A stretch of 64,000 nt of DNA from Gordonia sp. (in: high G+C Gram-positive bacteria) (lineage in GTDB: Bacteria; Actinomycetota; Actinomycetes; Mycobacteriales; Mycobacteriaceae). Below are positions 43,872 through 57,340 of this stretch, piece by piece. The stretch lies in NCBI RefSeq assembly GCF_047600565.1, contig NZ_JASGKN010000001.1, forward strand, positions 221,628-285,627. Direction: 5' to 3'. Position 1 is the first letter of the stretch; each line of letters starts with the position of its first letter. The notes beneath the pieces were generated by a model, which saw only the letters and a list, made by a program, of their open reading frames with translations, did not search any database and had not been told where the DNA came from. Position numbers and translations under genes: made by a program.

Positions 43872-43916
43872 TTGACTCGCGGCCACCCGGAACGCTAGAA
43901 TCGAACAAAAGTTCGA
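43872..43916 (+). promoter_or_regulatory. SOS-regulated promoter of imuA'-imuB: -35/-10 plus a LexA (Cheo-type) box
   Basis: TTGACT (43872-43877), 18 nt, then TAGAAT (43896-43901), overlapping the perfect palindrome TCGAAC-aaaa-GTTCGA (43901-43916). Confidence 0.85.
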
Positions 43917-43962
43917 ACACGGCATCTTCCCTGCCGCCGGATCGTCAGGCGAGGGGAAGCGC

Positions 43963-44691
43963 ATGCCCGATCTCAGATCATCCACCACGGTGGAAGCCCT
44001 GCGGCGACAGCTGTCGCAGTTGCAGGGGACGCCGGCCGAGCGGCCGGCGTCGCGCACGGTGCTGCCGGTGCCCGGTCCACTCGCCGGTCTGCTGCCGCGC
44101 CGCGGTCTGCCGCCCGGTTCGGTGGTGGAGGTGGCGGGGGCATCGACGGTGGCGATGGCCGTGCTGGCACAGGTCAGCGCCGCCGGATCGACGGCGGCCC
44201 TGATCGGCCTGCCGCAGCTGAACCTGGCCGTCGCCGAAGACCTGGGTGCCGACCTGAACCGGATCGCGGTCGTGGAGCAGCCCGGTGTCGACGCCCTCGA
44301 CGTGGCCGCCGTACTGCTCGACGGGATCGATCTGGTGCTGGTGGCCGCGCAGCGGGTGACGCCGTCGCGGGCCCGGGTCCTCGCCGGTCGAGCCCGCCGG
44401 CAGTCGTCGGTGCTGCTGGCCGTCGGGGAGTCCGGATGCTGGCCGGGGGCGGCGATCCGGTTCGAGGGCCGGGTGGCGGGCTACCGGCATGTGCTGGGCA
44501 CCGGCCACCAGCCCAGCGGTTACGGACGGATCGGTGGTCTGGAACTGGAGGTGCGCGTGTCCGGGACGGGCCTCGCGCCGTCGACCGTGCGCTGCGAGCT
44601 GACGGAACCCGGTCTGGGTGAGCCCGGTCGTCCGGAACTGGTGGAGATCGACGTCGCGACCGGCCGGCCGCGGTTGGCGGTGGCGAACTGA
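43963..44691 (+). CDS. imuA': ImuA'-like SOS mutasome accessory protein (Rv3395c-like)
   Basis: 242-aa protein directly upstream of, and overlapping (TGATG), imuB, behind a LexA box. Contains RGLPPGSVVEVAG, a degenerate RecA-like loop. Confidence 0.75.
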   Translation: MPDLRSSTTVEALRRQLSQLQGTPAERPASRTVLPVPGPLAGLLPRRGLPPGSVVEVAGASTVAMAVLAQVSAAGSTAALIGLPQLNLAVAEDLGADLNRIAVVEQPGVDALDVAAVLLDGIDLVLVAAQRVTPSRARVLAGRARRQSSVLLAVGESGCWPGAAIRFEGRVAGYRHVLGTGHQPSGYGRIGGLELEVRVSGTGLAPSTVRCELTEPGLGEPGRPELVEIDVATGRPRLAVAN

Positions 44692-46277
44692 TGCAGCGGA
44701 TTCTCGTTCTCTGGTGCCCCGACTGGCCGGCGGTCGCGGCCGCACAGGCCCTCGGCGGCGATGGCACCGCACCGGTGGCGGTGCTGGCCTCCGGGGCGGT
44801 GGCGGCCTGCTCGCGTACCGCCCGGGAGGCGGGCGTGCGCCGCGGTATGCGCAAGCGGCAGGCGCAGTCGGCCTGCCCGGAACTGTGTGTCGTACCGGCC
44901 GATCAGCACCGGGACGGCCGGCTCTTCGAGCCGGTGGTCGCGGCGGTCACCGGTGTGGTCCCGATGACCGAGGTGCTGCGGCCCGGACTGCTGGCCGTGG
45001 CCGCCGACCGGGCGGTGCGCGCCTTCGGCGGGGAGGAGGAGCTGTCCGAGGCGGTGATCGCCGCCGCCGAAGCGGTGGGTGTCACCGCGCGGGCCGGAGT
45101 CGCCGACCAGCTGTTCACCGCGGTGCTCGCCGCCCGCAGTGGACGATGCGTTCCACCCGGTGGCGACGCCGGCTTTCTCCGGGACCGTCCGATCGCCGAT
45201 CTCGCGGTGGAACCGGCGCTGTCCGGGGCGGGTCGTGACGACCTGGTGAATGTGCTGTGGCGGCTGGGGATCCGCACCCTCGGCGCCTTCGCCGATCTCG
45301 ACCCCGTCGACGTCGCCTCCCGGTTCTCCGCCGATGCGGCCGCCGTGCACCGGCTGGCCTCCGCCCGTCCGGGCCGCCGGCCGAGCCGTGCACCGATCCC
45401 GGCGGAACTGGAGGTGGACCACGACTGCGACCCGCCGGTCGACCGCATCGATGCCGCCGCCTTCCTCGGTCGGCGGCTGGCCGACGAACTGCATCGTCGT
45501 CTCGCTTCGGCGGGGCTGGCCTGCACCCGACTGACCGTGCACGCGATCACCGAGCTCGGGCAGCGCCACTCCCGGACCTGGCGCTGCGCCGAACCCCTCA
45601 CCCCGGACGCCACCGCCGATCGGATCCGCTGGCAGCTCGAAGGCTGGCTCACCCGGGCCGCCGGCACCCAGGACGCGCCGGACTCGCCGCTGGTAGGGCT
45701 GATCCTGGAGCCGACGGAACTGGTGGATCCCGGCGCCCTGCAGCATGCGTTGACCGGCGCCGGTCTGCCGCCCGAATCGGGGATCGGGGGACTGGGCGAC
45801 CAGGCCCGCCGCGCCCTGGTGCGCGTCCAGGGGCTGTTGGGCGGGGACGCCGTCCGGGTTCCGGTGCGCAGTGGGGGTCGGGGGCCGGCCGAGCGGGTGT
45901 CGTCGGTGGTCTTCGGCGACGAGAAGGTTCCGGCGCGTCCGGTGGACGCCGCCTGGCCGGACCGCCTGGCCGGTCCGCTGCCGACACTGCTGTGCCGCGA
46001 CGCCGCCGAACTCTTCGACGCCCGCGGTGACGCTGTGGGCGTCACCCCGCGCGGCGGATTCACCGCCGAACCCGTCGACGTCGCCGTCGGCGGCCGCCGC
46101 AGCCGGATCCGGTGGTGGGCCGGGCCGTGGCCGTTCGGAATCGATGCCCCCGCGAGGTCGGCGGATGCCCGGCCCGTCGCGGTCGCCGCCCGGGCGCAGG
46201 TGCTTCTCGACGACTCCCGCGCCCTGCTGCTCTGCTATCGCGGCGCGCACTGGACCGTCGAGGGCGTCTACGAATGA
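44691..46277 (+). CDS. imuB: ImuB, Y-family-polymerase-like mutasome adaptor
   Basis: The N-terminus MQRILVLWCPDWPAVAA is typical of ImuB/Rv3394c. 528 aa. Operon context with imuA' and a LexA box. Confidence 0.85.
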   Translation: MQRILVLWCPDWPAVAAAQALGGDGTAPVAVLASGAVAACSRTAREAGVRRGMRKRQAQSACPELCVVPADQHRDGRLFEPVVAAVTGVVPMTEVLRPGLLAVAADRAVRAFGGEEELSEAVIAAAEAVGVTARAGVADQLFTAVLAARSGRCVPPGGDAGFLRDRPIADLAVEPALSGAGRDDLVNVLWRLGIRTLGAFADLDPVDVASRFSADAAAVHRLASARPGRRPSRAPIPAELEVDHDCDPPVDRIDAAAFLGRRLADELHRRLASAGLACTRLTVHAITELGQRHSRTWRCAEPLTPDATADRIRWQLEGWLTRAAGTQDAPDSPLVGLILEPTELVDPGALQHALTGAGLPPESGIGGLGDQARRALVRVQGLLGGDAVRVPVRSGGRGPAERVSSVVFGDEKVPARPVDAAWPDRLAGPLPTLLCRDAAELFDARGDAVGVTPRGGFTAEPVDVAVGGRRSRIRWWAGPWPFGIDAPARSADARPVAVAARAQVLLDDSRALLLCYRGAHWTVEGVYE

Positions 46278-49528: not shown

Positions 49529-50071
49529 ATGTCACCGAACCGTATGCGGAAACTGCTTCTCACCGCCGGGGCCGGCGCCGCCGTCGTGGCGATCGCCGTG
49601 GGATCCGGTCCGGCCGCCGCCGCGACCCGCGCGACGATCACCGAACCGCGCAACGACTACACGCTGCCGTACCTGGACTCGGTCCGCGCGACCGTCGACG
49701 TCGACGCGGCTGCCGGTCATCTGCGCGTGACCATCGCCCATCGCGGGATCCGGCCGCCGCAGGAGATCGGTTGGCGCTACTACACCGAAGGCGTGGTCTT
49801 GCGGAGCGGTGCCTCCGACTCGTCTCCCGGCATCCAGTTGAGTTATGGACGTCAGCCCATGAACGGCAAGACCTCGCAGGCTCTCGTCGACGGTCCGAAC
49901 GGTCAGGTCAGGGTGCCCGTGAACGTGGTCGAGAACGGTTCGTCGACCACCTACACGGTGAACTCCGCGGCCTTGAAGACGCTGAATCCGCACTATCTGT
50001 CCGGCTGGACGAGCGATGGAATCCTCGGTCTGCCGGCCTTGTCGGACACCATGCCGCGGAAACGCTTCTGA
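49529..50071 (+). CDS. Secreted hypothetical protein
   Basis: Signal peptide MSPNRMRKLLLTAGAGAAVVAIAVGSGPAAAA. Shine-Dalgarno GGAAGGA. No family recognised. Confidence 0.55.
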   Translation: MSPNRMRKLLLTAGAGAAVVAIAVGSGPAAAATRATITEPRNDYTLPYLDSVRATVDVDAAAGHLRVTIAHRGIRPPQEIGWRYYTEGVVLRSGASDSSPGIQLSYGRQPMNGKTSQALVDGPNGQVRVPVNVVENGSSTTYTVNSAALKTLNPHYLSGWTSDGILGLPALSDTMPRKRF

Positions 50072-50075
50072 GCAC

Positions 50076-50492
50076 ATGACGTTCCGGGCCGCGACGGTCG
50101 ACGACGTCCACGAACTGGCCGCCGCGATGCCGCATGTGACCGTCGTCCACGGTGGGCAGGGCAACCCCGTCTACCAGGTGGGTGGGAAGTCGTTCGTCTT
50201 CTTCCGCACTCCGCGACCAGATGCCTGTGATCCTGTGTCAGGAGAGAAGTACGACGACGTGATCGTGTTCTGGGTCGAATCCGATGAGACGAAAGCCGCC
50301 CTGGTCTCCGATCCGGCGTCGCCGTACTTCACCACGTCGCACTTCGATGGCCACCCGTCCGTGCTGGTGCGTGCCTCCCGGTTGGGTGAGATCGGCCGGG
50401 ACGAACTCGCCGAGGTCGTCGCCGACGCGTGGCTGTCGCGAGCATCGACGCGTCGCGGTGCGCAGTGGCTGCAGGAACAGGGGCTGACGTAG
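50076..50492 (+). CDS. MmcQ/YjbR-like protein
   Basis: 138 aa from MTFRAATVDDVHELAAAMPHV. Contains the KSFVFF and FTTSHFDGHPSVLV pattern, which resembles the YjbR family from memory. Confidence 0.5.
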   Translation: MTFRAATVDDVHELAAAMPHVTVVHGGQGNPVYQVGGKSFVFFRTPRPDACDPVSGEKYDDVIVFWVESDETKAALVSDPASPYFTTSHFDGHPSVLVRASRLGEIGRDELAEVVADAWLSRASTRRGAQWLQEQGLT

Positions 50493-50521
50493 GGCGGTCC
50501 GACGCTCTGAATCGAGTCTGT

Positions 50522-50546
50522 GGGAGCGTCCTGTCGCAGGACTCCC
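50522..50546 (+). terminator. Candidate stem-loop terminator after the YjbR-like gene
   Basis: gggag-c-gtcctg-tcg-caggac-tccc gives an 11-bp stem with one bulge. Confidence 0.45.
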
Positions 50547-50648
50547 CGGTTCCCTCAATACCCTCCAAAGTTCCGGCTGAAACGTTGGAGTAATCCCCTC
50601 CCCGGCCGGGCTGGAAATTGTCGTAGGCCTGCGTAAACTAGAAGGCAG

Positions 50649-50664
50649 TCGAACACATGTTCTA
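50649..50664. promoter_or_regulatory. LexA (SOS) box upstream of the second HNH gene
   Basis: TCGAAC-acat-GTTCTA has one mismatch to TCGAAC-N4-GTTCGA. It lies 24 nt upstream of ATG 50688. Confidence 0.7.
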
Positions 50665-50687
50665 GTCAACGAAAAGGGGGTGTGGGC

Positions 50688-52331
50688 ATGAGTCGACGCA
50701 AGCACTCACGAAGCCCGAAACGCTGGCGCGATGCCGACCTCACACCCCTGGGTTTAGGGCCTGTACCGGACGGGCTGTCCGATCATGACGCTGACGTGGC
50801 GGCGATCAATCAGCTCGTGGCGGCGTGTGCGGGTGAGTCGTATCTGGTGTGGCGGCGCCTGAACGCGGTTGCCGACCTCCTCGAACGACGAGCCCCTGTT
50901 GATCCGGCAACCGCGGAGGATTCGGTCGAGTTCACCCGTTTATGTGACCCGCGTACGAAGCTGGCCACCAGTATTGCCACCACCTTGGCGGTCAGCACGT
51001 ATCTGGCCGAGAAACTGGTGACCGAGGGCGAAGCGCTGCGCCATCGCCTCCCACACACCGGCGTGTTGTTGCGAGACGGGGTCTTGAGTCCCCGGGCGTT
51101 CTCTGCGGTGGTGTTCGAGACCACCGCCGTGATCGACACGGCCTTGATGGTGCAGATCGATCATCGGATCGCCGACGACATCACTGCCTCCGGTGTGCGC
51201 ACCGTGACTGCCGTGGCTGATCTCGCCCGCCGGATCGTCGCGGACGTTGATGCCGAAGCAGCCCGCGCCGAACGCGAAGCGGCCAAGAAGTCGGCCGGAG
51301 TGGTGAGCTACCCGATCCGCGGAGGGATGGCGGTTCTGGAAATCACCGATACCGCAGAACGTGTTGCGGTCATGGACGCCGCGATCACCGCCGCATCCCA
51401 GAAGACCGACGAGACTGACACCCGCAGTAGTGGGCGCCGCCGCGCCGATGCCGCCTTCGACTTGTTGACCGGGGACGGCACTGGACCCGGTTCCCGGATC
51501 GTCGTGAACGTCATCACCGACGGATCCACGCTTGAGGGCGGGGACACACCCGGGCACCTCGACGGGCACGGAACCATCTCCGCCGACCACGTCCGCGACA
51601 TCGCGTCGACGCCCGGCACCGTCGTGCGGCCCCTCGACCTGACGCGGCTCGCTGATCACACTGCTCAGGCGGCAGATCCGTACCGGCCGACCGCCCTGCT
51701 GGACACGGTGGTGCGCGGTTTGTTCGGAACCTGCACCTGGCCGGGTTGTTCACGCCCCGCCTCACGGTGCCAGCTCGATCACGTCACCGAATACAACCAC
51801 CAGAACCCTGATGCGGGTGGTGCGACGTGTTGGTGCAACCTCAACCCCAAATGCGTCTTCCACCACCAGATCAAAACCTTCGCCGACGGATTCCTCGACG
51901 ACCAGGTCATCGACGCCCACGGCCAGATCTGGACCGAAATCACCACCCCAGAAGGATTCACCACCCGAACCCGGGCAGCCAACACCTGGCTGTTGCCTGG
52001 TTTGGGGTTGATTCCCTGTAGGCATGGACCACCCCAGGATCTCCTTTCGACAGGCTCAAGGAGCGTTCAGCCCCGCTCCTTGAGCGTGCGGTGCCCTGAG
52101 CATGCGTGGCGGAGCTTGCTCCGACACGCGGTCGAAGGGTCGAAAGGAGTCGAACCCACCCGCGCCCGTACTCGCACGGAGGCCAAACACGCCTACCGGA
52201 TGCAGCTGCGCGCTCAGAACCGGCGAGCTCGCTTCGACAGGCTCAACGAGCGGACGAACCAGCTCAACGAGCGAACCGATGAGCCGGCGACTCGCACGGC
52301 ATTCGCCGACGACGGACCACCACCGTTCTGA
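50688..52331 (+). CDS. DUF222 + HNH endonuclease-domain protein (REP13E12-like), full-length copy
   Basis: Paralog of 2-1525, with about 20 substitutions over about 400 aligned residues by my manual count. Same HNH cluster. ATG 50688 is preferred over GTG 50682 because of spacing from the GGGGG Shine-Dalgarno sequence. Confidence 0.85.
   Translation: MSRRKHSRSPKRWRDADLTPLGLGPVPDGLSDHDADVAAINQLVAACAGESYLVWRRLNAVADLLERRAPVDPATAEDSVEFTRLCDPRTKLATSIATTLAVSTYLAEKLVTEGEALRHRLPHTGVLLRDGVLSPRAFSAVVFETTAVIDTALMVQIDHRIADDITASGVRTVTAVADLARRIVADVDAEAARAEREAAKKSAGVVSYPIRGGMAVLEITDTAERVAVMDAAITAASQKTDETDTRSSGRRRADAAFDLLTGDGTGPGSRIVVNVITDGSTLEGGDTPGHLDGHGTISADHVRDIASTPGTVVRPLDLTRLADHTAQAADPYRPTALLDTVVRGLFGTCTWPGCSRPASRCQLDHVTEYNHQNPDAGGATCWCNLNPKCVFHHQIKTFADGFLDDQVIDAHGQIWTEITTPEGFTTRTRAANTWLLPGLGLIPCRHGPPQDLLSTGSRSVQPRSLSVRCPEHAWRSLLRHAVEGSKGVEPTRARTRTEAKHAYRMQLRAQNRRARFDRLNERTNQLNERTDEPATRTAFADDGPPPF
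52041..52149. repeat. Palindromic mini-element, variant copy at the same codon position of the second HNH gene
   Basis: The left arm ctcctttcgacaggctcaaggagcg (52041-52065) is identical to the copy-1 arm. The right arm is split into cgctccttgagc (52074-52085) and tcgaaaggag (52140-52149) by unrelated sequence. Confidence 0.8.
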
Positions 52332-52332
52332 G

Positions 52333-52361
52333 ATGGGTTGGCACTGAATCATGGGTTGGCA
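52333..52361 (+). repeat. Duplicated dnaE2 start: ATGGGTTGGCA twice, 18 nt apart
   Basis: The first copy (52333-52343) opens a mini-ORF ATG GGT TGG CAC TGA (MGWH-stop). The second copy (52351-52361) is the real dnaE2 start, MGWHNGP. Confidence 0.9.
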
Positions 52362-55300
52362 TAACGGGCCGCTGAACTGGTCGGAGATGGAGCGGGTGCT
52401 CTCCGGCCGGCCGCCCACGCCCAGGGAACTCGCCAGGCCCTATCTGCCGGGTGGTGACGGCGGGGATTCGCCGGCCTGGTCGCGCAAGCGGGGAGCCTTC
52501 CAGCCGGAGGATGTGCAGCCGGTGGCATCGTCCATCGACTACGCCGAACTCCATGCGCACAGCGCCTACAGCTTTCTCGACGGCGCCTCACTGCCCGAGG
52601 AGATGGTGACCGAAGCGCGCCGCCTGGGCCTGACGGCGCTCGCACTCACCGACCACGACGGCTTCTACGGGGTGGTGCGGTTTGCTGAAGCGGCCCGCGA
52701 ATACGGCCTGCCTACCGTCTTCGGTGCCGAACTCTCCCTCCAGCGAGACTCGGCCAGAGCCGGTTCCGTGGACCCTCCCGGCGAACATCTGCTGGTCCTC
52801 GCCAAAGACGCCGAAGGCTACCGGCGACTGTCCCGGGTGATCGCCGACGCGCACATGAGCGGCGGCGCCAAAGGGCTGCTGCGCTACGACCACGATCTGC
52901 TCACCTCGTCGGCGGCCGGGCACTGGCTGATCCTCACCGGCTGCCGCAAAGGGGTGGTGCGCCGGGCGCTGGCCCGCGGCGGCATCACCGCGGCGCGGGC
53001 CGCACTCGGCGATCTGGTGCAGCGGTTCGGCCGGGAGACGGTGATCGTCGAACTGACCGCCGACGGCGGATCCGGCGACGACGAACGCAATGCGATCCTG
53101 GCCGGTCTGGCCGCCGAGTTCTCGCTGCCGGCGGTCGCGACCACCGGCGCCCACTTCTCCGGACCGCATCGCCGTCGCCTGGCCCAGGCCGTCGCCGCGA
53201 TACGGGCCCGCACCGACATCGACACCATCGCCGGCTGGCTGCCCGGCATCGGGGGCTCCCATCTGCGCAGCGGCGACGAGATGGTGCGTCTGCTGCCGGC
53301 GCACCGCGACGCCGTCGAGAACGCCGCCGGCATCGCCGCCGACTGCGCGTTCTCCCTGGAACTGATCGCCCCGAACCTTCCGCCGTTCGACGTCCCCGAC
53401 GGGCACACCGAGGCGAGCTGGCTGCGGCACCTGACCGAGGAGGGGGCACGCCGGCGCTACGGCACCCGCGAAGAGCGACCGGATGCCTACCGGCAGATCG
53501 AGCACGAGCTGAACGTCATCGAGACGCTCACCTTCCCCGGCTACTTCCTGGTGGTCCACGACATCGTCAGGTTCTGCAAGAAGAACGACATCCTGTGTCA
53601 GGGCCGGGGGAGCGCGGCGAACTCGGCGGTCTGTTACGCCCTCGGCGTCACCAACGTCGACCCGATCGCCAACCACCTGCTCTTCGAACGGTTCCTCGCC
53701 CCGGAACGGGACGGACCGCCGGACATCGACGTCGACATCGAATCCGACCGCCGGGAGGAGGCGATCCAATACGTCTACAGCCGGCACGGCCGTGAGTTCA
53801 GTGCGCAGGTCGCCAACGTCATCACCTACCGGGGACGGTCGGCGATCCGCGACTCCGCGCGGGCCCTCGGCTACGACCCCGGTCAGCAGGACGCGTGGAG
53901 CAAAGTGCCCGATTCGGCGCCCGACGACGTCCGTGCCATGGCCGCCGAGATCGCCTCCCTGCCCCGCCATCTGGGTATCCACTCCGGGGGCATGGTGATC
54001 TGCGACCGGCCGATCGCCGACGTCTGCCCGACCGAATGGGCGCGGATGGAGGGCCGCAGCGTCCTGCAATGGGACAAGGACGACTGTGCGTCCGTGGGCC
54101 TGGTCAAGTTCGATCTGCTGGGCCTCGGCATGCTCTCGGCGCTGCACTACGCGATCGACCTGGTGGCGCAGCACAAGGGCCTCGACGTCGACCTGGCGAC
54201 CCTGGACCTGTCCGAACAGGCCGTCTACGACATGCTGTGCCGCGCCGACTCGGTGGGCGTGTTCCAGGTGGAGTCGCGGGCACAGATGGCGACGCTGCCG
54301 AGGCTCAAACCGCAGAAATTCTACGACCTGGTGGTGGAGGTGGCGCTGATCCGTCCCGGACCGATCCAGGGAGGATCGGTGCACCCGTACATCCGCCGCC
54401 GCAACGGGCACGAGGATTCGGACGTCGAGCATTCGTCGATGGAGAATGCGCTCGGCCGCACTCTGGGCATTCCGCTGTTCCAGGAACAGCTCATGCAGCT
54501 GGCCGTCGACGTCGCCGGATTCGACACCGCGGAGGCCGACCAGTTGCGGCGGGCCATGGGATCCAAACGATCGCCGGAGAAGATGGAGCGTCTCCGGGCC
54601 CGCTTCTACGAAGGGATGGCCGCCACCCACGGCATCACCGGCGACATGGCCGATCGGGTCTACGAGAAGATGGCGGCCTTCGCCAACTTCGGTTTCCCGG
54701 AAAGCCATTCACAGAGCTTCGCGTCACTGGTGTTCTATTCGGCCTGGTTCAAGCTGCATCATCCGGCGGCGTTCTGCGCGGCACTGCTGCGGGCGCAGCC
54801 GATGGGCTTCTACTCCCCGCAGTCCCTGGTGGCCGACGCGCGCCGGCACGGGGTGGTGGTGCACCACCCGGACATCAACTCCTCGCTGGTGCACGCGAAC
54901 CTGGAGAACGCGGGACTCGAGGTGCGAATCGGTCTGGGCGCGATCAAAGGCCTGGGCGAGGCCGGTGCGCAGCGAATCGTCGACGATCGGGAACGGCGCG
55001 GACCGTACGCCGGCGTCACCGACCTGTCGCGGCGAGCCGAGCTGACCGGCACCCAACTGGAGGCACTCGCCACCGCGGGCGCGTTCGGATCACTCGGGCT
55101 CGATCGGCGGTCGGCGTTGTGGGAGGCGGGGGCGGCAGCCGGCCTGCGCGAAGACCAGTTGGAGGCAGTGTCCCCGCGCGGGGCGCCGGCACTGCCCGGG
55201 ATGAGCGAGGTGGAACTGGCGGCGGTCGACGCCATGTCGACGGGCATCACCCCGCACACCTACCCGACGCAGTACCTGCGTCCCCGCCTGGACGCGATGG

Positions 55301-55614
55301 GGGTGACCCCCGCCGACCGGCTGCTGTCGGTGCCCGACGGGACCCGCGTGACGGTCGGGGGAGCGGTCACCCATCGTCAACGCCCGGCCACCGCGTCCGG
55401 CGTCACCTTCGTGAACCTCGAAGACGAGACCGGGATGGTGAACGTCGTCTGCTCGGTGGGACTGTGGTCGCGGTACCGAAAACTCGCCCAGACCGCGTCG
55501 GCACTGCTGATCCGCGGAAAAGTGCAGAACGCGGAAGGCGCGGTGACCGTCGTCGCCGACCGTCTGCAGCGACTCGACCTCCGCGTCGGCACACGATCGC
55601 GGGACTGGTGCTGA
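52351..55614 (+). CDS. dnaE2: Error-prone DNA polymerase DnaE2 (ImuC)
   Basis: PHP domain YAELHAHSAYSFLDGAS. 1087 aa. Pol III alpha core motifs GRGSAANSAVCYALGVT and IDVDIESDRRE. Confidence 0.95.
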   Translation: MGWHNGPLNWSEMERVLSGRPPTPRELARPYLPGGDGGDSPAWSRKRGAFQPEDVQPVASSIDYAELHAHSAYSFLDGASLPEEMVTEARRLGLTALALTDHDGFYGVVRFAEAAREYGLPTVFGAELSLQRDSARAGSVDPPGEHLLVLAKDAEGYRRLSRVIADAHMSGGAKGLLRYDHDLLTSSAAGHWLILTGCRKGVVRRALARGGITAARAALGDLVQRFGRETVIVELTADGGSGDDERNAILAGLAAEFSLPAVATTGAHFSGPHRRRLAQAVAAIRARTDIDTIAGWLPGIGGSHLRSGDEMVRLLPAHRDAVENAAGIAADCAFSLELIAPNLPPFDVPDGHTEASWLRHLTEEGARRRYGTREERPDAYRQIEHELNVIETLTFPGYFLVVHDIVRFCKKNDILCQGRGSAANSAVCYALGVTNVDPIANHLLFERFLAPERDGPPDIDVDIESDRREEAIQYVYSRHGREFSAQVANVITYRGRSAIRDSARALGYDPGQQDAWSKVPDSAPDDVRAMAAEIASLPRHLGIHSGGMVICDRPIADVCPTEWARMEGRSVLQWDKDDCASVGLVKFDLLGLGMLSALHYAIDLVAQHKGLDVDLATLDLSEQAVYDMLCRADSVGVFQVESRAQMATLPRLKPQKFYDLVVEVALIRPGPIQGGSVHPYIRRRNGHEDSDVEHSSMENALGRTLGIPLFQEQLMQLAVDVAGFDTAEADQLRRAMGSKRSPEKMERLRARFYEGMAATHGITGDMADRVYEKMAAFANFGFPESHSQSFASLVFYSAWFKLHHPAAFCAALLRAQPMGFYSPQSLVADARRHGVVVHHPDINSSLVHANLENAGLEVRIGLGAIKGLGEAGAQRIVDDRERRGPYAGVTDLSRRAELTGTQLEALATAGAFGSLGLDRRSALWEAGAAAGLREDQLEAVSPRGAPALPGMSEVELAAVDAMSTGITPHTYPTQYLRPRLDAMGVTPADRLLSVPDGTRVTVGGAVTHRQRPATASGVTFVNLEDETGMVNVVCSVGLWSRYRKLAQTASALLIRGKVQNAEGAVTVVADRLQRLDLRVGTRSRDWC

Positions 55615-55855: not shown

Positions 55856-55898
55856 GGTCGGCTGCGGCACCGGCGCCGGTCCGGCAGAATCGGCCGGA

Positions 55899-56046
55899 GG
55901 CGGACGGTGCGAGAGGGATCGAGGATCCGTCTCAGGGGCTACCCCTGGGTACATGAACGGTTCGGCATCGCGTCGCGCGCAGCCGGGCACACTTCGTGTG
56001 CTGCACTGCGCGCCGAAGACGACAAGTCGTGGTCGCACCGTCCGCC
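55899..56046 (+). ncRNA. Candidate retron msr-msd non-coding RNA bounded by a1/a2 inverted repeats
   Basis: a1 GGCGGACGGTGCGA (55899-55912) and a2 TCGCACCGTCCGCC (56033-56046) are perfect reverse complements. Inside are three hairpins: 55916-55928, 55933-55947, and a long interrupted one at 55975-56013. The RT reading frame starts 19 nt downstream. Confidence 0.55.
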
Positions 56047-56064
56047 ACCGACCGAAAGGGACAC

Positions 56065-56278
56065 GTGACCGGAGCCGGACTGTCGCCGCCGGCGCGTTTC
56101 AGCCCGGCCACCATCGCACGAATGGTCCGGACGGTCGCCGAGGTGCCGTGGGAGCGGACCGAAGTGAACGGTGCGCTCGTCACCGTCATCGATCCGGTCG
56201 ACGCCGAGGAGGTCACCACCGTCCTCCTCGCGGCCTTCTCCTCACATCCCGATCTCCTCACATCCCGATCCGGAGGAC
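56065..56278 (+). other. Coding-looking 5' segment that would fuse in frame to the RT if one 16-bp repeat copy were removed
   Basis: GTG 56065 follows GAAAGGGA. Strong GC3 bias through ...EEVTTVLLAAFSSHPD. In the present sequence this frame then runs out of phase across the RT gene to 56685. Confidence 0.45.
56238..56269 (+). repeat. Perfect 16-bp tandem duplication
   Basis: ctcctcacatcccgat occurs twice (56238-56253 and 56254-56269). Because 16 is not a multiple of 3, it shifts the frame by one. Confidence 0.95.
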
Positions 56279-57340
56279 ATGACCGGACTGGTGGCCGCCC
56301 TGCCGGCGCCCACCCGAGTGTGGTCACCCCAACCGCCGACCGGCCGTCCCCGGTTCGGTGTTCCCACGATCGACGACGTGGCCGCCCTGGCGGCGTGGCT
56401 GAACCTGAGTCTCGAAGAACTGGACTGGTTCGCGGCGCGCGGCCGCTGGTCGGTGCGGGCGGCGCCCCGGCTTCGGCACTACCGGGTGGCGCGGATCGCC
56501 AAACGCGGTGGCGGGGTACGGATCATCGAGGCGCCGAAGGAACGACTCGCCACGATTCAGCGCACGATCCTCGACCACATCCTGATCGCGGTGCCACCCC
56601 ACCCGGCGGCACACGGATTCGTCCGCGGGCATTCGGTGATCGACTTCGCGCAGCCGCACACCGGACGTCGTGTCCTCGTCCGTGAAGACCTCCGGCACTG
56701 CTTCGAGCATGTGACCTATCCGCGGGTGAAAGCGGTGTTCGGTGCGATCGGCTATCCGCCGCCGGTGGCGACCTATCTGGCCGGTCTGTGCACCACGGTG
56801 GTGGCGGTCGCCGACAGGACGGGCCTCACCCCGCTGCACGCCGCGCTCCTGCGGGAACGGCACCTGCCACAGGGTGCGCCTCCATCACCGGCGCTGCTGA
56901 ACCTGGTCCTGCGCCGCCTGGACTTCCGGATCGCCGGATACGCGGCCGCACACCACCTGACCTACACCCGGTACGCCGACGACCTGGCCTTCTCCGGTGA
57001 CGAGGTCGATGTGGGCGCACTGCGCTGGTTCATCGGCCGGGTGGTGGCGAGCGAGGGCTTCGTGGTCCACCCCGACAAGACCCAGGTGATGTACGACCAT
57101 CAGCGGCAACGACTGGGAGGCCTCGTCGTCAACGAGGGGGTGCGGGCGAGTCGCCACGACTTCGACGCCCTCAAAGCGCTGCTGCACAACGCCGCCCGGA
57201 CCGGTGGTGAAGCGCAGAACCGTGCCGGACTGCCCGATTTCCGCGCCCACGTGTACGGCCGCATCGAATGGGTGTCGACCGGGTCGCCGGAACGTCGGGC
57301 ACGGCTCCTCGCGATGGCCGGCCGCGTCGACTGGGGCTGA
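56279..57340 (+). CDS. Retron-type reverse transcriptase
   Basis: RT motifs [18 protein letters not shown] (1-2), VREDLRHCF (A), [20 protein letters not shown] (4), [11 protein letters not shown] (YADD at 56972-56983), and KTQVM...RLGGLVVNE (6-7). Block-by-block resemblance to retron Ec86 RT as I remember it. The minimal start is ATG 56279; the true start may be 56065. Confidence 0.85.

Follow-up and report, generated by a model that had tools for sequence, protein, structure and literature searches.

A DUF222 element of the REP13E12 type apparently supplies the LexA operator that dnaE2 has lost in a small Gordonia genome

In a Gordonia sp. genome (assembly GCF_047600565.1), the LexA operator and the promoter of the error-prone polymerase gene dnaE2 have been destroyed at the edge of a REP13E12-like DUF222 element, and the operator-bearing promoter of that element appears to stand in for them. 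DnaE2 drives damage-induced mutagenesis and the appearance of resistance to drugs in mycobacteria and relatives, LexA control of its gene is counted as belonging to the conserved core of the SOS regulon, and dnaE2 is expected to be SOS-inducible. The locus lies in a window of 64,000 nucleotides (nt; positions 221,628 to 285,627 of contig NZ_JASGKN010000001.1), and positions are those of the window unless genome coordinates are named. An SOS box, TCGAACACATGTTCTA, at 50649-50664 (+), which has one mismatch to the actinobacterial consensus TCGAAC-N4-GTTCGA, is followed by the gene of a DUF222 protein of 547 aa (50688-52331, +), whose open reading frame (ORF) runs from an ATG at 50688, with the Shine-Dalgarno (SD) sequence AAGGGGG at 50674-50680, to a TGA stop at 52329-52331. 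After a gap of 19 nt, dnaE2 begins on the same strand with the ATG at 52351 and encodes a Pol III alpha paralog of 1087 aa (52351-55614). An earlier note on this DNA had given the positions of the box, the stop and the dnaE2 start, all of which were confirmed on re-reading the sequence. Two boxes with at most one mismatch are present in the window, compared with 0.13 expected from shuffles, the other one being the perfect box that precedes imuA'-imuB (43901-43916).

The ownership of the box follows from the other copies of the element. The genome, which is complete at 2.93 Mb, contains nine copies of the DUF222 gene (88-90% protein identity and ~90% nt identity), each within an element of 1.67-1.83 kb with identical and sharp boundaries, and the copy next to dnaE2 was delimited to 50547-52331 (+) by tblastn and an alignment of the copies with their flanks. 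The left end, (C)GGTTCCCTCAATACC, is located ~100 nt upstream of the box (window position 50547/8), while the right end is exactly the stop codon of the ORF, ...CCGTTCTGA (52331). Scanning the genome at up to one mismatch returns 37 boxes, nine of which have the form TCGAACAC(C/A)TGTTCTA and precede the nine copies. In every copy, the box occupies the same internal position, 9 nt after the predicted -10 hexamer, and the stretch CTGGAAATTGTCGTAGGCCTGCGTAAACTAGAA plus the box is near-invariant. Although the nine copies are located at unrelated loci, the box and ~100 nt upstream of it are common to all of them; on this alignment, therefore, the box at 50649 is part of the DUF222 element and not of dnaE2. 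One of two readings offered in the earlier note, that the element brought its own SOS box, is therefore right, as all copies carry it ~100 nt inside a sharply bounded element. Its quality equals that of the lexA, recA and ruvC boxes of this genome, which have one mismatch each.

The copies differ by a dS of ~0.33 at a dN/dS of ~0.13, which indicates purifying selection on the DUF222 ORF; the copies are therefore old paralogs that encode a selected protein, and the ORF is translated up to its stop. Their G+C content at third codon positions is 0.75, versus ~0.87 in host genes. Terminal inverted repeats, target-site duplications or a common target motif were not found in the flanks of the nine copies. 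A second copy is present inside the window at about 1-1522, and the left end of the element was also recorded as (C)GGTTCCCTCAAT. Between the dnaE2-adjacent copy and the one at genome position 2367501, the leaders share 97% identity and the coding sequences 89%, a contrast that hints at gene conversion.

For comparison, the dnaE2 upstream regions of 17 Gordonia genomes with a DnaE2 identity of 74-85% were examined. All 17 genes possess their own LexA box, which ends 11-13 nt before the start codon (e.g. TCGAACGTACGTTCTAAAATGATTCGGTG in G007, TCGAACTGGTGTTCTAATATGGGTTCGGTG in G095 and TCGAACATACGTTCTATAATGGTCCGGTG in G045), and many of these operators share the GTTCTA variant. The final two bases of the box are shared with a TAnnAT hexamer, whose own end lies 7 nt ahead of the start codon. 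No SD sequence is present, and this geometry suggests that the congeneric dnaE2 mRNA is probably leaderless or nearly so. In a metagenomic sample of 65 dnaE2 loci, 38 have an own box that starts near -28, with the same geometry as in the congeners, and a further 22 have imuB directly upstream of dnaE2. This comparison speaks against the second reading of the earlier note, according to which the element landed downstream of the original dnaE2 operator.

The native operator can be traced to the opposite end of the element. In a MAFFT alignment, the sequence CCGTTC-TGAGAT-GGGTTGG, followed by CACTGAATCA and TGGGTTGG, stands against GTTC-TAATAT-GGGTTCGG-TGGGATGG in the congeners, and the element terminus ...CGTTCTGA occupies the position of the native 3' half-site ...GTTCTAA. 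Compared with G095, the end of the element, including its TGA, is superimposed on the 3' half-site and the -10 hexamer (GTTCTAATATGGGTTCG in that genome); the junction, GTTCTGAGATGGGTTGG, extends from 52325 to 52341 (+). The stop codon of the element turns the -10 TAATAT into TGAGAT, which places a G at the critical -11 position, and the left half-site of the native LexA box is absent. These features, together with the absence of any TANNNT hexamer between 50640 and 52360 (+), support the claim of the earlier note that dnaE2 is left with neither a promoter nor an operator that belongs to it; no recognisable SD sequence, -10 or operator of its own was found for dnaE2. Relative to the congeners, a 10-nt insertion (CACTGAATCA, 52342-52351) precedes the dnaE2 start and creates the mini-ORF ATGGGTTGGCACTGA (MGWH*; 52333-52347, +), which includes part of the insertion and is separated by 1 nt from the DUF222 stop and by 3 nt from the dnaE2 ATG. 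The change from GTG to ATG at the dnaE2 start was considered as an adaptation and dropped, as ~17 other Gordonia apparently have ATG too.

In the simplest history, the element would have inserted downstream of yjbR, and a microhomology-mediated deletion of ~0.9 kb between the element sequence CGTTCTGA and the box sequence CGTTCTAA would have accompanied or followed this insertion. The fusion point would lie in the 3' half-site of the native dnaE2 box, with the microhomology CGTTCT(G/A)A, and the loss would have taken two genes together with the left half-site and would have removed the A at -11 from the native promoter, which was probably leaderless. The conserved left flank is the YjbR-family gene at 50016-50492 (+; Pfam YjbR), whose ortholog in G007 is 76% identical; the hairpin GGGAGCGTCCTGTCGCAGGACTCCC follows at 50522-50546 (+) without a U-tract, and the element starts directly after it. 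G007 is the one congener with the same left flank and has two opposite-strand genes between yjbR and the dnaE2 box, encoding a winged-helix regulator and a membrane protein, for which no orthologs were found anywhere in the genome studied here. This history is suggested by a single syntenic congener and by short alignments. Two points weigh against it: the microhomology covers only 6/7 nt, and for part of the junction a duplication of the dnaE2 start is an alternative reading. At another copy (genome 2159896-2159935), the last bases of the element plus flank, TTCTGATCGAC, recur 14 nt downstream of the right junction; this resembles the short repeat seen where the element meets dnaE2 and could reflect templated fill-in at the 3' junctions of the element.

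If dnaE2 has lost its own signals, the next candidate promoter is that of the element. The forward strand between 50540 and 52360 contains only two TANNNT hexamers, TACCCT at the element edge and TAAACT at 50634-50639 (+), the latter being invariant in all nine copies and the only plausible -10 in the 1.8 kb between the left edge of the element and dnaE2. A sigma-70 consensus scan of 50400-52500 returned no promoter anywhere, and the promoter is therefore assigned from the conserved TANNNT hexamer and the comparison with recA. As the predicted LexA box is located 9 nt downstream of TAAACT, it covers the predicted transcription start. No terminator-like site was found on the forward strand between the element promoter and dnaE2; a C-terminal ORF segment at 52041-52149 (+) contains a palindrome (hairpin at 52055-52084) that has no U-tract, is inside the translated ORF and belongs to a region in which the only differences between the nine copies are in-frame indels of 27, 21, 51 and ~156 nt. 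The two genes thus share a strand, are separated by 19 nt and have neither a TANNNT hexamer nor a forward-strand terminator between them. With no promoter or operator of its own and no intervening -10 or terminator, dnaE2 is most economically viewed as the distal gene of one transcript, and it is probably, if by no means certainly, co-transcribed with the DUF222 gene from the LexA-controlled promoter of the element.

Such a transcript would start near 50646, 5' of the DUF222 gene, and run on into dnaE2. LexA on the element box would block initiation, DNA damage would release the DUF222-dnaE2 bicistron, and the substituted operator would preserve SOS control of the mutasome polymerase. Ribosomes would terminate at the DUF222 stop and at the 4-codon mini-ORF and then re-initiate at the dnaE2 ATG. 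LexA binding, co-transcription and translational coupling at this locus are predicted from the arrangement of the sequence elements. The polymerase itself is intact: it is full length, is 85% identical to that of the closest congener and has the domains expected of DnaE2/ImuC (PHP, Pol III alpha, finger, HhH and OB). An identical DnaE2 protein was looked for in public assemblies and not found. Its partner genes imuA' (43963-44691, +; NCBIfam NF058630, E 1.9e-44) and imuB (44691-46277, +; IMS domain) are likewise intact and retain a perfect LexA box of their own, TCGAACAAAAGTTCGA (43901-43916, +).

Two properties of the locus weigh against co-transcription from the element. Actinobacterial promoters can be weak or atypical, and weak promoters escape sequence scans, which makes an internal promoter in the 3' end of the DUF222 gene possible; moreover, yjbR is co-oriented and its hairpin has no U-tract, which makes LexA-independent read-through possible. 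Expression of dnaE2 could thus be independent of the promoter of the element, driven by a cryptic promoter, located either within the 3' part of the DUF222 gene or at the junction, where the crippled native -10 TGAGAT retains the T at -12 and -7, or by read-through out of yjbR, and SOS control of dnaE2 would then be lost or partial. This alternative deserves attention but is unlikely, given the lack of TANNNT hexamers between 50640 and 52360 and the replacement of the key A at -11 by G. In addition, imuA'-imuB keep their perfect box, next to which an unregulated catalytic partner would be odd.

A further alternative is that the insertion effectively silenced dnaE2, which would now be heading for decay in a shrinking genome. 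The loss of the promoter, the operator and the leaderless start context without a compensating SD sequence would fit this explanation, as would the reduced size of the genome (2.93 Mb) and the loss of the two neighboring genes. The gene is nevertheless full length, with all domains and no stops, and 85% identical to that of the closest congener; imuA' and imuB are intact; and the dS of ~0.33 among the copies suggests, without dating it, an old insertion after which the dnaE2 ORF is still open. Silencing is therefore improbable. With its 2.93 Mb, the genome is the smallest complete one among 92 Gordonia species representatives (2.8-7.3 Mb), the sole smaller representative having 2.8 Mb at 76% completeness. 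This size, together with the loss of the two genes that G007 carries between yjbR and dnaE2, would fit a genome that is still being reduced.

The adjacency of the two genes could be taken for a conserved unit, and the junction DNA was therefore searched against 92 Gordonia genomes. The DUF222-dnaE2 junction was found in none of the ~90 other Gordonia genomes: the dnaE2 matches listed begin at the start codon (query position 202-203), except for one that begins 6 nt upstream (196). By this search, DUF222-dnaE2 is not a conserved unit in Gordonia. No preference for damage genes is apparent in the other eight copies; at least four lie between convergent gene ends, and one precedes a co-oriented SDR gene by 42 nt (genome 2365650-2365693), which could likewise be read through from the LexA-controlled promoter. 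An ORF of 1087 aa downstream of another copy was tried as a second dnaE2 and turned out to be an over-extended UvrA-like gene ~1 kb away. Taken as one insertion among nine, the adjacency to dnaE2 appears to be an accident of this lineage that left the regulation in place, and not a new unit under conservation, and the insertion may have been tolerated because the element brought the operator of the same regulator.

A similar layout is present in the metagenomic sample, where a DUF222-HNH gene is located directly upstream of dnaE2 and on the same strand in only two of the 65 loci, L108 (distance of 86 nt) and L117 (27 nt). Five loci of the sample lack both an own box and an upstream imuB, and these two are among them. 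The DnaE2 proteins of L108 and L117 share 74% identity with each other and 52-53% with the Gordonia DnaE2 studied here, and their DUF222 proteins are only 30-43% identical to the one described here; the nuclease gene of L108 is preceded by a box-like site and a canonical TGTCAG-N10-TATCAT motif. Judged from these identities, the same layout is of independent origin in the distant lineage of L108 and L117. Two of 65 loci from one lineage are only suggestive of an association and are not significant alone. Two further loci, L066 and L068, have 3000 nt of upstream flank and no own SOS box within 200 nt, no imuB and no DUF222 gene; L075 has no box either, but its upstream flank is just 330 nt long.

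One could speculate that DUF222/13E12 genes are SOS-regulon parasites that recurrently capture the promoter position of the mutasome, so that the Gordonia fusion and L108/L117 would represent one selected arrangement, although this idea has little probability at present. Capture may proceed through recombination at LexA half-sites, one of which is mimicked by the terminal ...GTTCTGA of the element, and the nuclease might feed the DnaE2 mutasome, for instance by making lesions or breaks that it processes. A related proposal, in which the adjacency reflects a functional or targeting link, with DUF222 elements integrating preferentially at LexA operators or the nuclease working with the mutasome, draws on the location of the right junction in the native half-site and on the same layout in the unrelated lineage of L108/L117. 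It is quite doubtful, as convergent gene ends, which leave no place for a former promoter or operator, flank at least four of the nine copies, the junction is absent from the ~90 other Gordonia genomes, and the metagenomic cases amount to 2/65 loci of one lineage that are not significant alone. Targeting of SOS promoters by the element was dismissed for this subfamily, because several copies are situated between convergent gene ends. Finally, the second reading of the earlier note, in which the original dnaE2 operator would be the box at 50649 and the nuclease gene would have inserted between it and the coding sequence, could appeal to the GTTCTA variant that also occurs in native dnaE2 operators of congeners, but it is refuted for practical purposes by the box and ~100 nt upstream that nine copies share at unrelated loci and by the remnant of the native operator, located 11-13 nt before the start in congeners and destroyed here, which is found at the 3' and not the 5' end of the element.

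The promoter of the element contains a second feature that may be related to DNA damage. The sequence TTGTCGTAG (50618-50626, +), which resembles the -26 element of PafBC/RecA-NDp promoters, is located upstream of the -10 of the element, and an identical 9-mer is found in the recA promoter of this genome, while the related form TTGTCGTAC precedes another DUF222 paralog. The consensus of PafBC-dependent promoters, tGTCgg(N10)tA(N3)T, places 12 nt between TGTC and the -10 (PMC8635444). The GTC triplet and the -10 are both present in the element, but the spacer comprises 11 nt in all nine copies versus 12 nt in recA of the same genome, and the element therefore departs from this consensus. A pafB-pafC-like WYL gene pair is present in the genome. 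No site in the genome matches the strict RecA-NDp pattern TTGTC[AG]GTG-N7-9-TANNNT, and the local variant TTGTCGTA(G/C)-N8-TAnnnT occurs at about two dozen sites genome-wide, three of which are near-identical (TTGTCGTACccccgagaTACATT). Because the spacer is 11 and not 12 nt, a dependence of the element promoter on PafBC is no more than a possibility, and the short spacer counts against it. The local motif is also found at recA (genome 696364-696386) and at a 54%-identical DUF222 paralog (genome 676903-676960), where it is combined with the box TCAAACACCAGTTCTA.

As for the encoded protein, residues 52-310 match the Pfam family DUF222 (PF02720; E 7.5e-20, 71.9 bits versus a cut-off of 24.4). 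No Pfam or NCBIfam HNH model matches the protein even at E<=10, and no relative was found in the PDB. Residues 349-396 (51732-51875, +) show, by eye, the signature CTWPGC...C..DH...N.N..C..HH..K, and the relatives of the protein, all from Gordonia and its neighbors, bear the name DUF222 or, in some cases, 'HNH endonuclease signature motif containing protein'. The label HNH is thus based on the visible CxxC...DH...N...HH signature and on the names of relatives, which suggest rather than demonstrate this assignment. The nearest named relatives of this subfamily outside the genome share at most 58% protein identity, and on such comparisons the subfamily is confined to this genome; a scan of genome contigs with the DUF222 protein gave a single, distant hit in Glycomyces. 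Regarding the surroundings of the locus, the imuA'-imuB operon (43901-46277) precedes dnaE2 by ~6 kb, and the genes found between them are an alanine-racemase-N/D-serine-dehydratase-like gene, a fused reductase/SDR gene and yjbR; a retron-type reverse transcriptase gene (RVT_1) is located at 55856-57340, just 3' of dnaE2.

Several known systems share features with this locus. In Mycobacterium tuberculosis, most 13E12/DUF222 genes are bound by LexA and regulated by damage, some also carry the RecA-NDp/PafBC motif, and dnaE2 has a separate perfect box (PMC3381160); the statement in the earlier note that some 13E12 members of this species are damage-inducible is in line with this published LexA control. 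The REP13E12/13E12 genes of M. tuberculosis (e.g. Rv0336, Rv0515, Rv1702c and Rv2100) are likewise multi-copy DUF222 genes with an HNH-type signature and an SOS-box promoter, and the Gordonia element corresponds to them in its dispersed copies, which share a non-coding leader and the ORF, and in the predicted LexA box of the DUF222 promoter. It differs in that one copy abuts dnaE2 and has apparently replaced its operator, and in that the Pfam HNH model gives no score. The LexA-regulated dnaE2 (Rv3370c) and imuA'-imuB (Rv3395c-Rv3394c) of M. tuberculosis are the same three genes as in this Gordonia, and the imuA-imuB-dnaE2 mutagenesis cassette, as cited in PMC3381160 (Erill et al., 2006), also comprises these three; whereas the mycobacterial dnaE2 has an own box close to its start, here that box is destroyed and the nearest one lies 1.7 kb away in an upstream selfish element. 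As in promoter replacement by insertion sequences with outward-reading promoters, an inserted repeat element would supply the signals for a downstream host gene; here, there is no transposase, inverted repeat or target duplication, and the incoming promoter has an operator for the same regulator as the displaced one, which conserves the regulatory logic. With TTGTCGTAG before a TAnnnT -10 and no -35, the element promoter also resembles the PafBC (RecA-NDp) hybrid promoters of actinobacterial DNA-damage genes, from which it differs by a spacer of 11 instead of 12 nt. What appears to be new at this locus is the combination of a destroyed dnaE2 operator and promoter with the operator-bearing promoter of a DUF222 element in their place.

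The locus represents a natural case of a dnaE2 operator that has been destroyed, with the operator of a selfish, SOS-inducible element apparently taking its place, and it illustrates how regulatory logic can survive the loss of a promoter. With nine diverged and selected copies, exact boundaries and a small complete genome, it also gives tractable access to questions of function and mobility in the large 13E12/DUF222 family. If the association with the mutasome proves recurrent, it would provide the first functional lead for this family.

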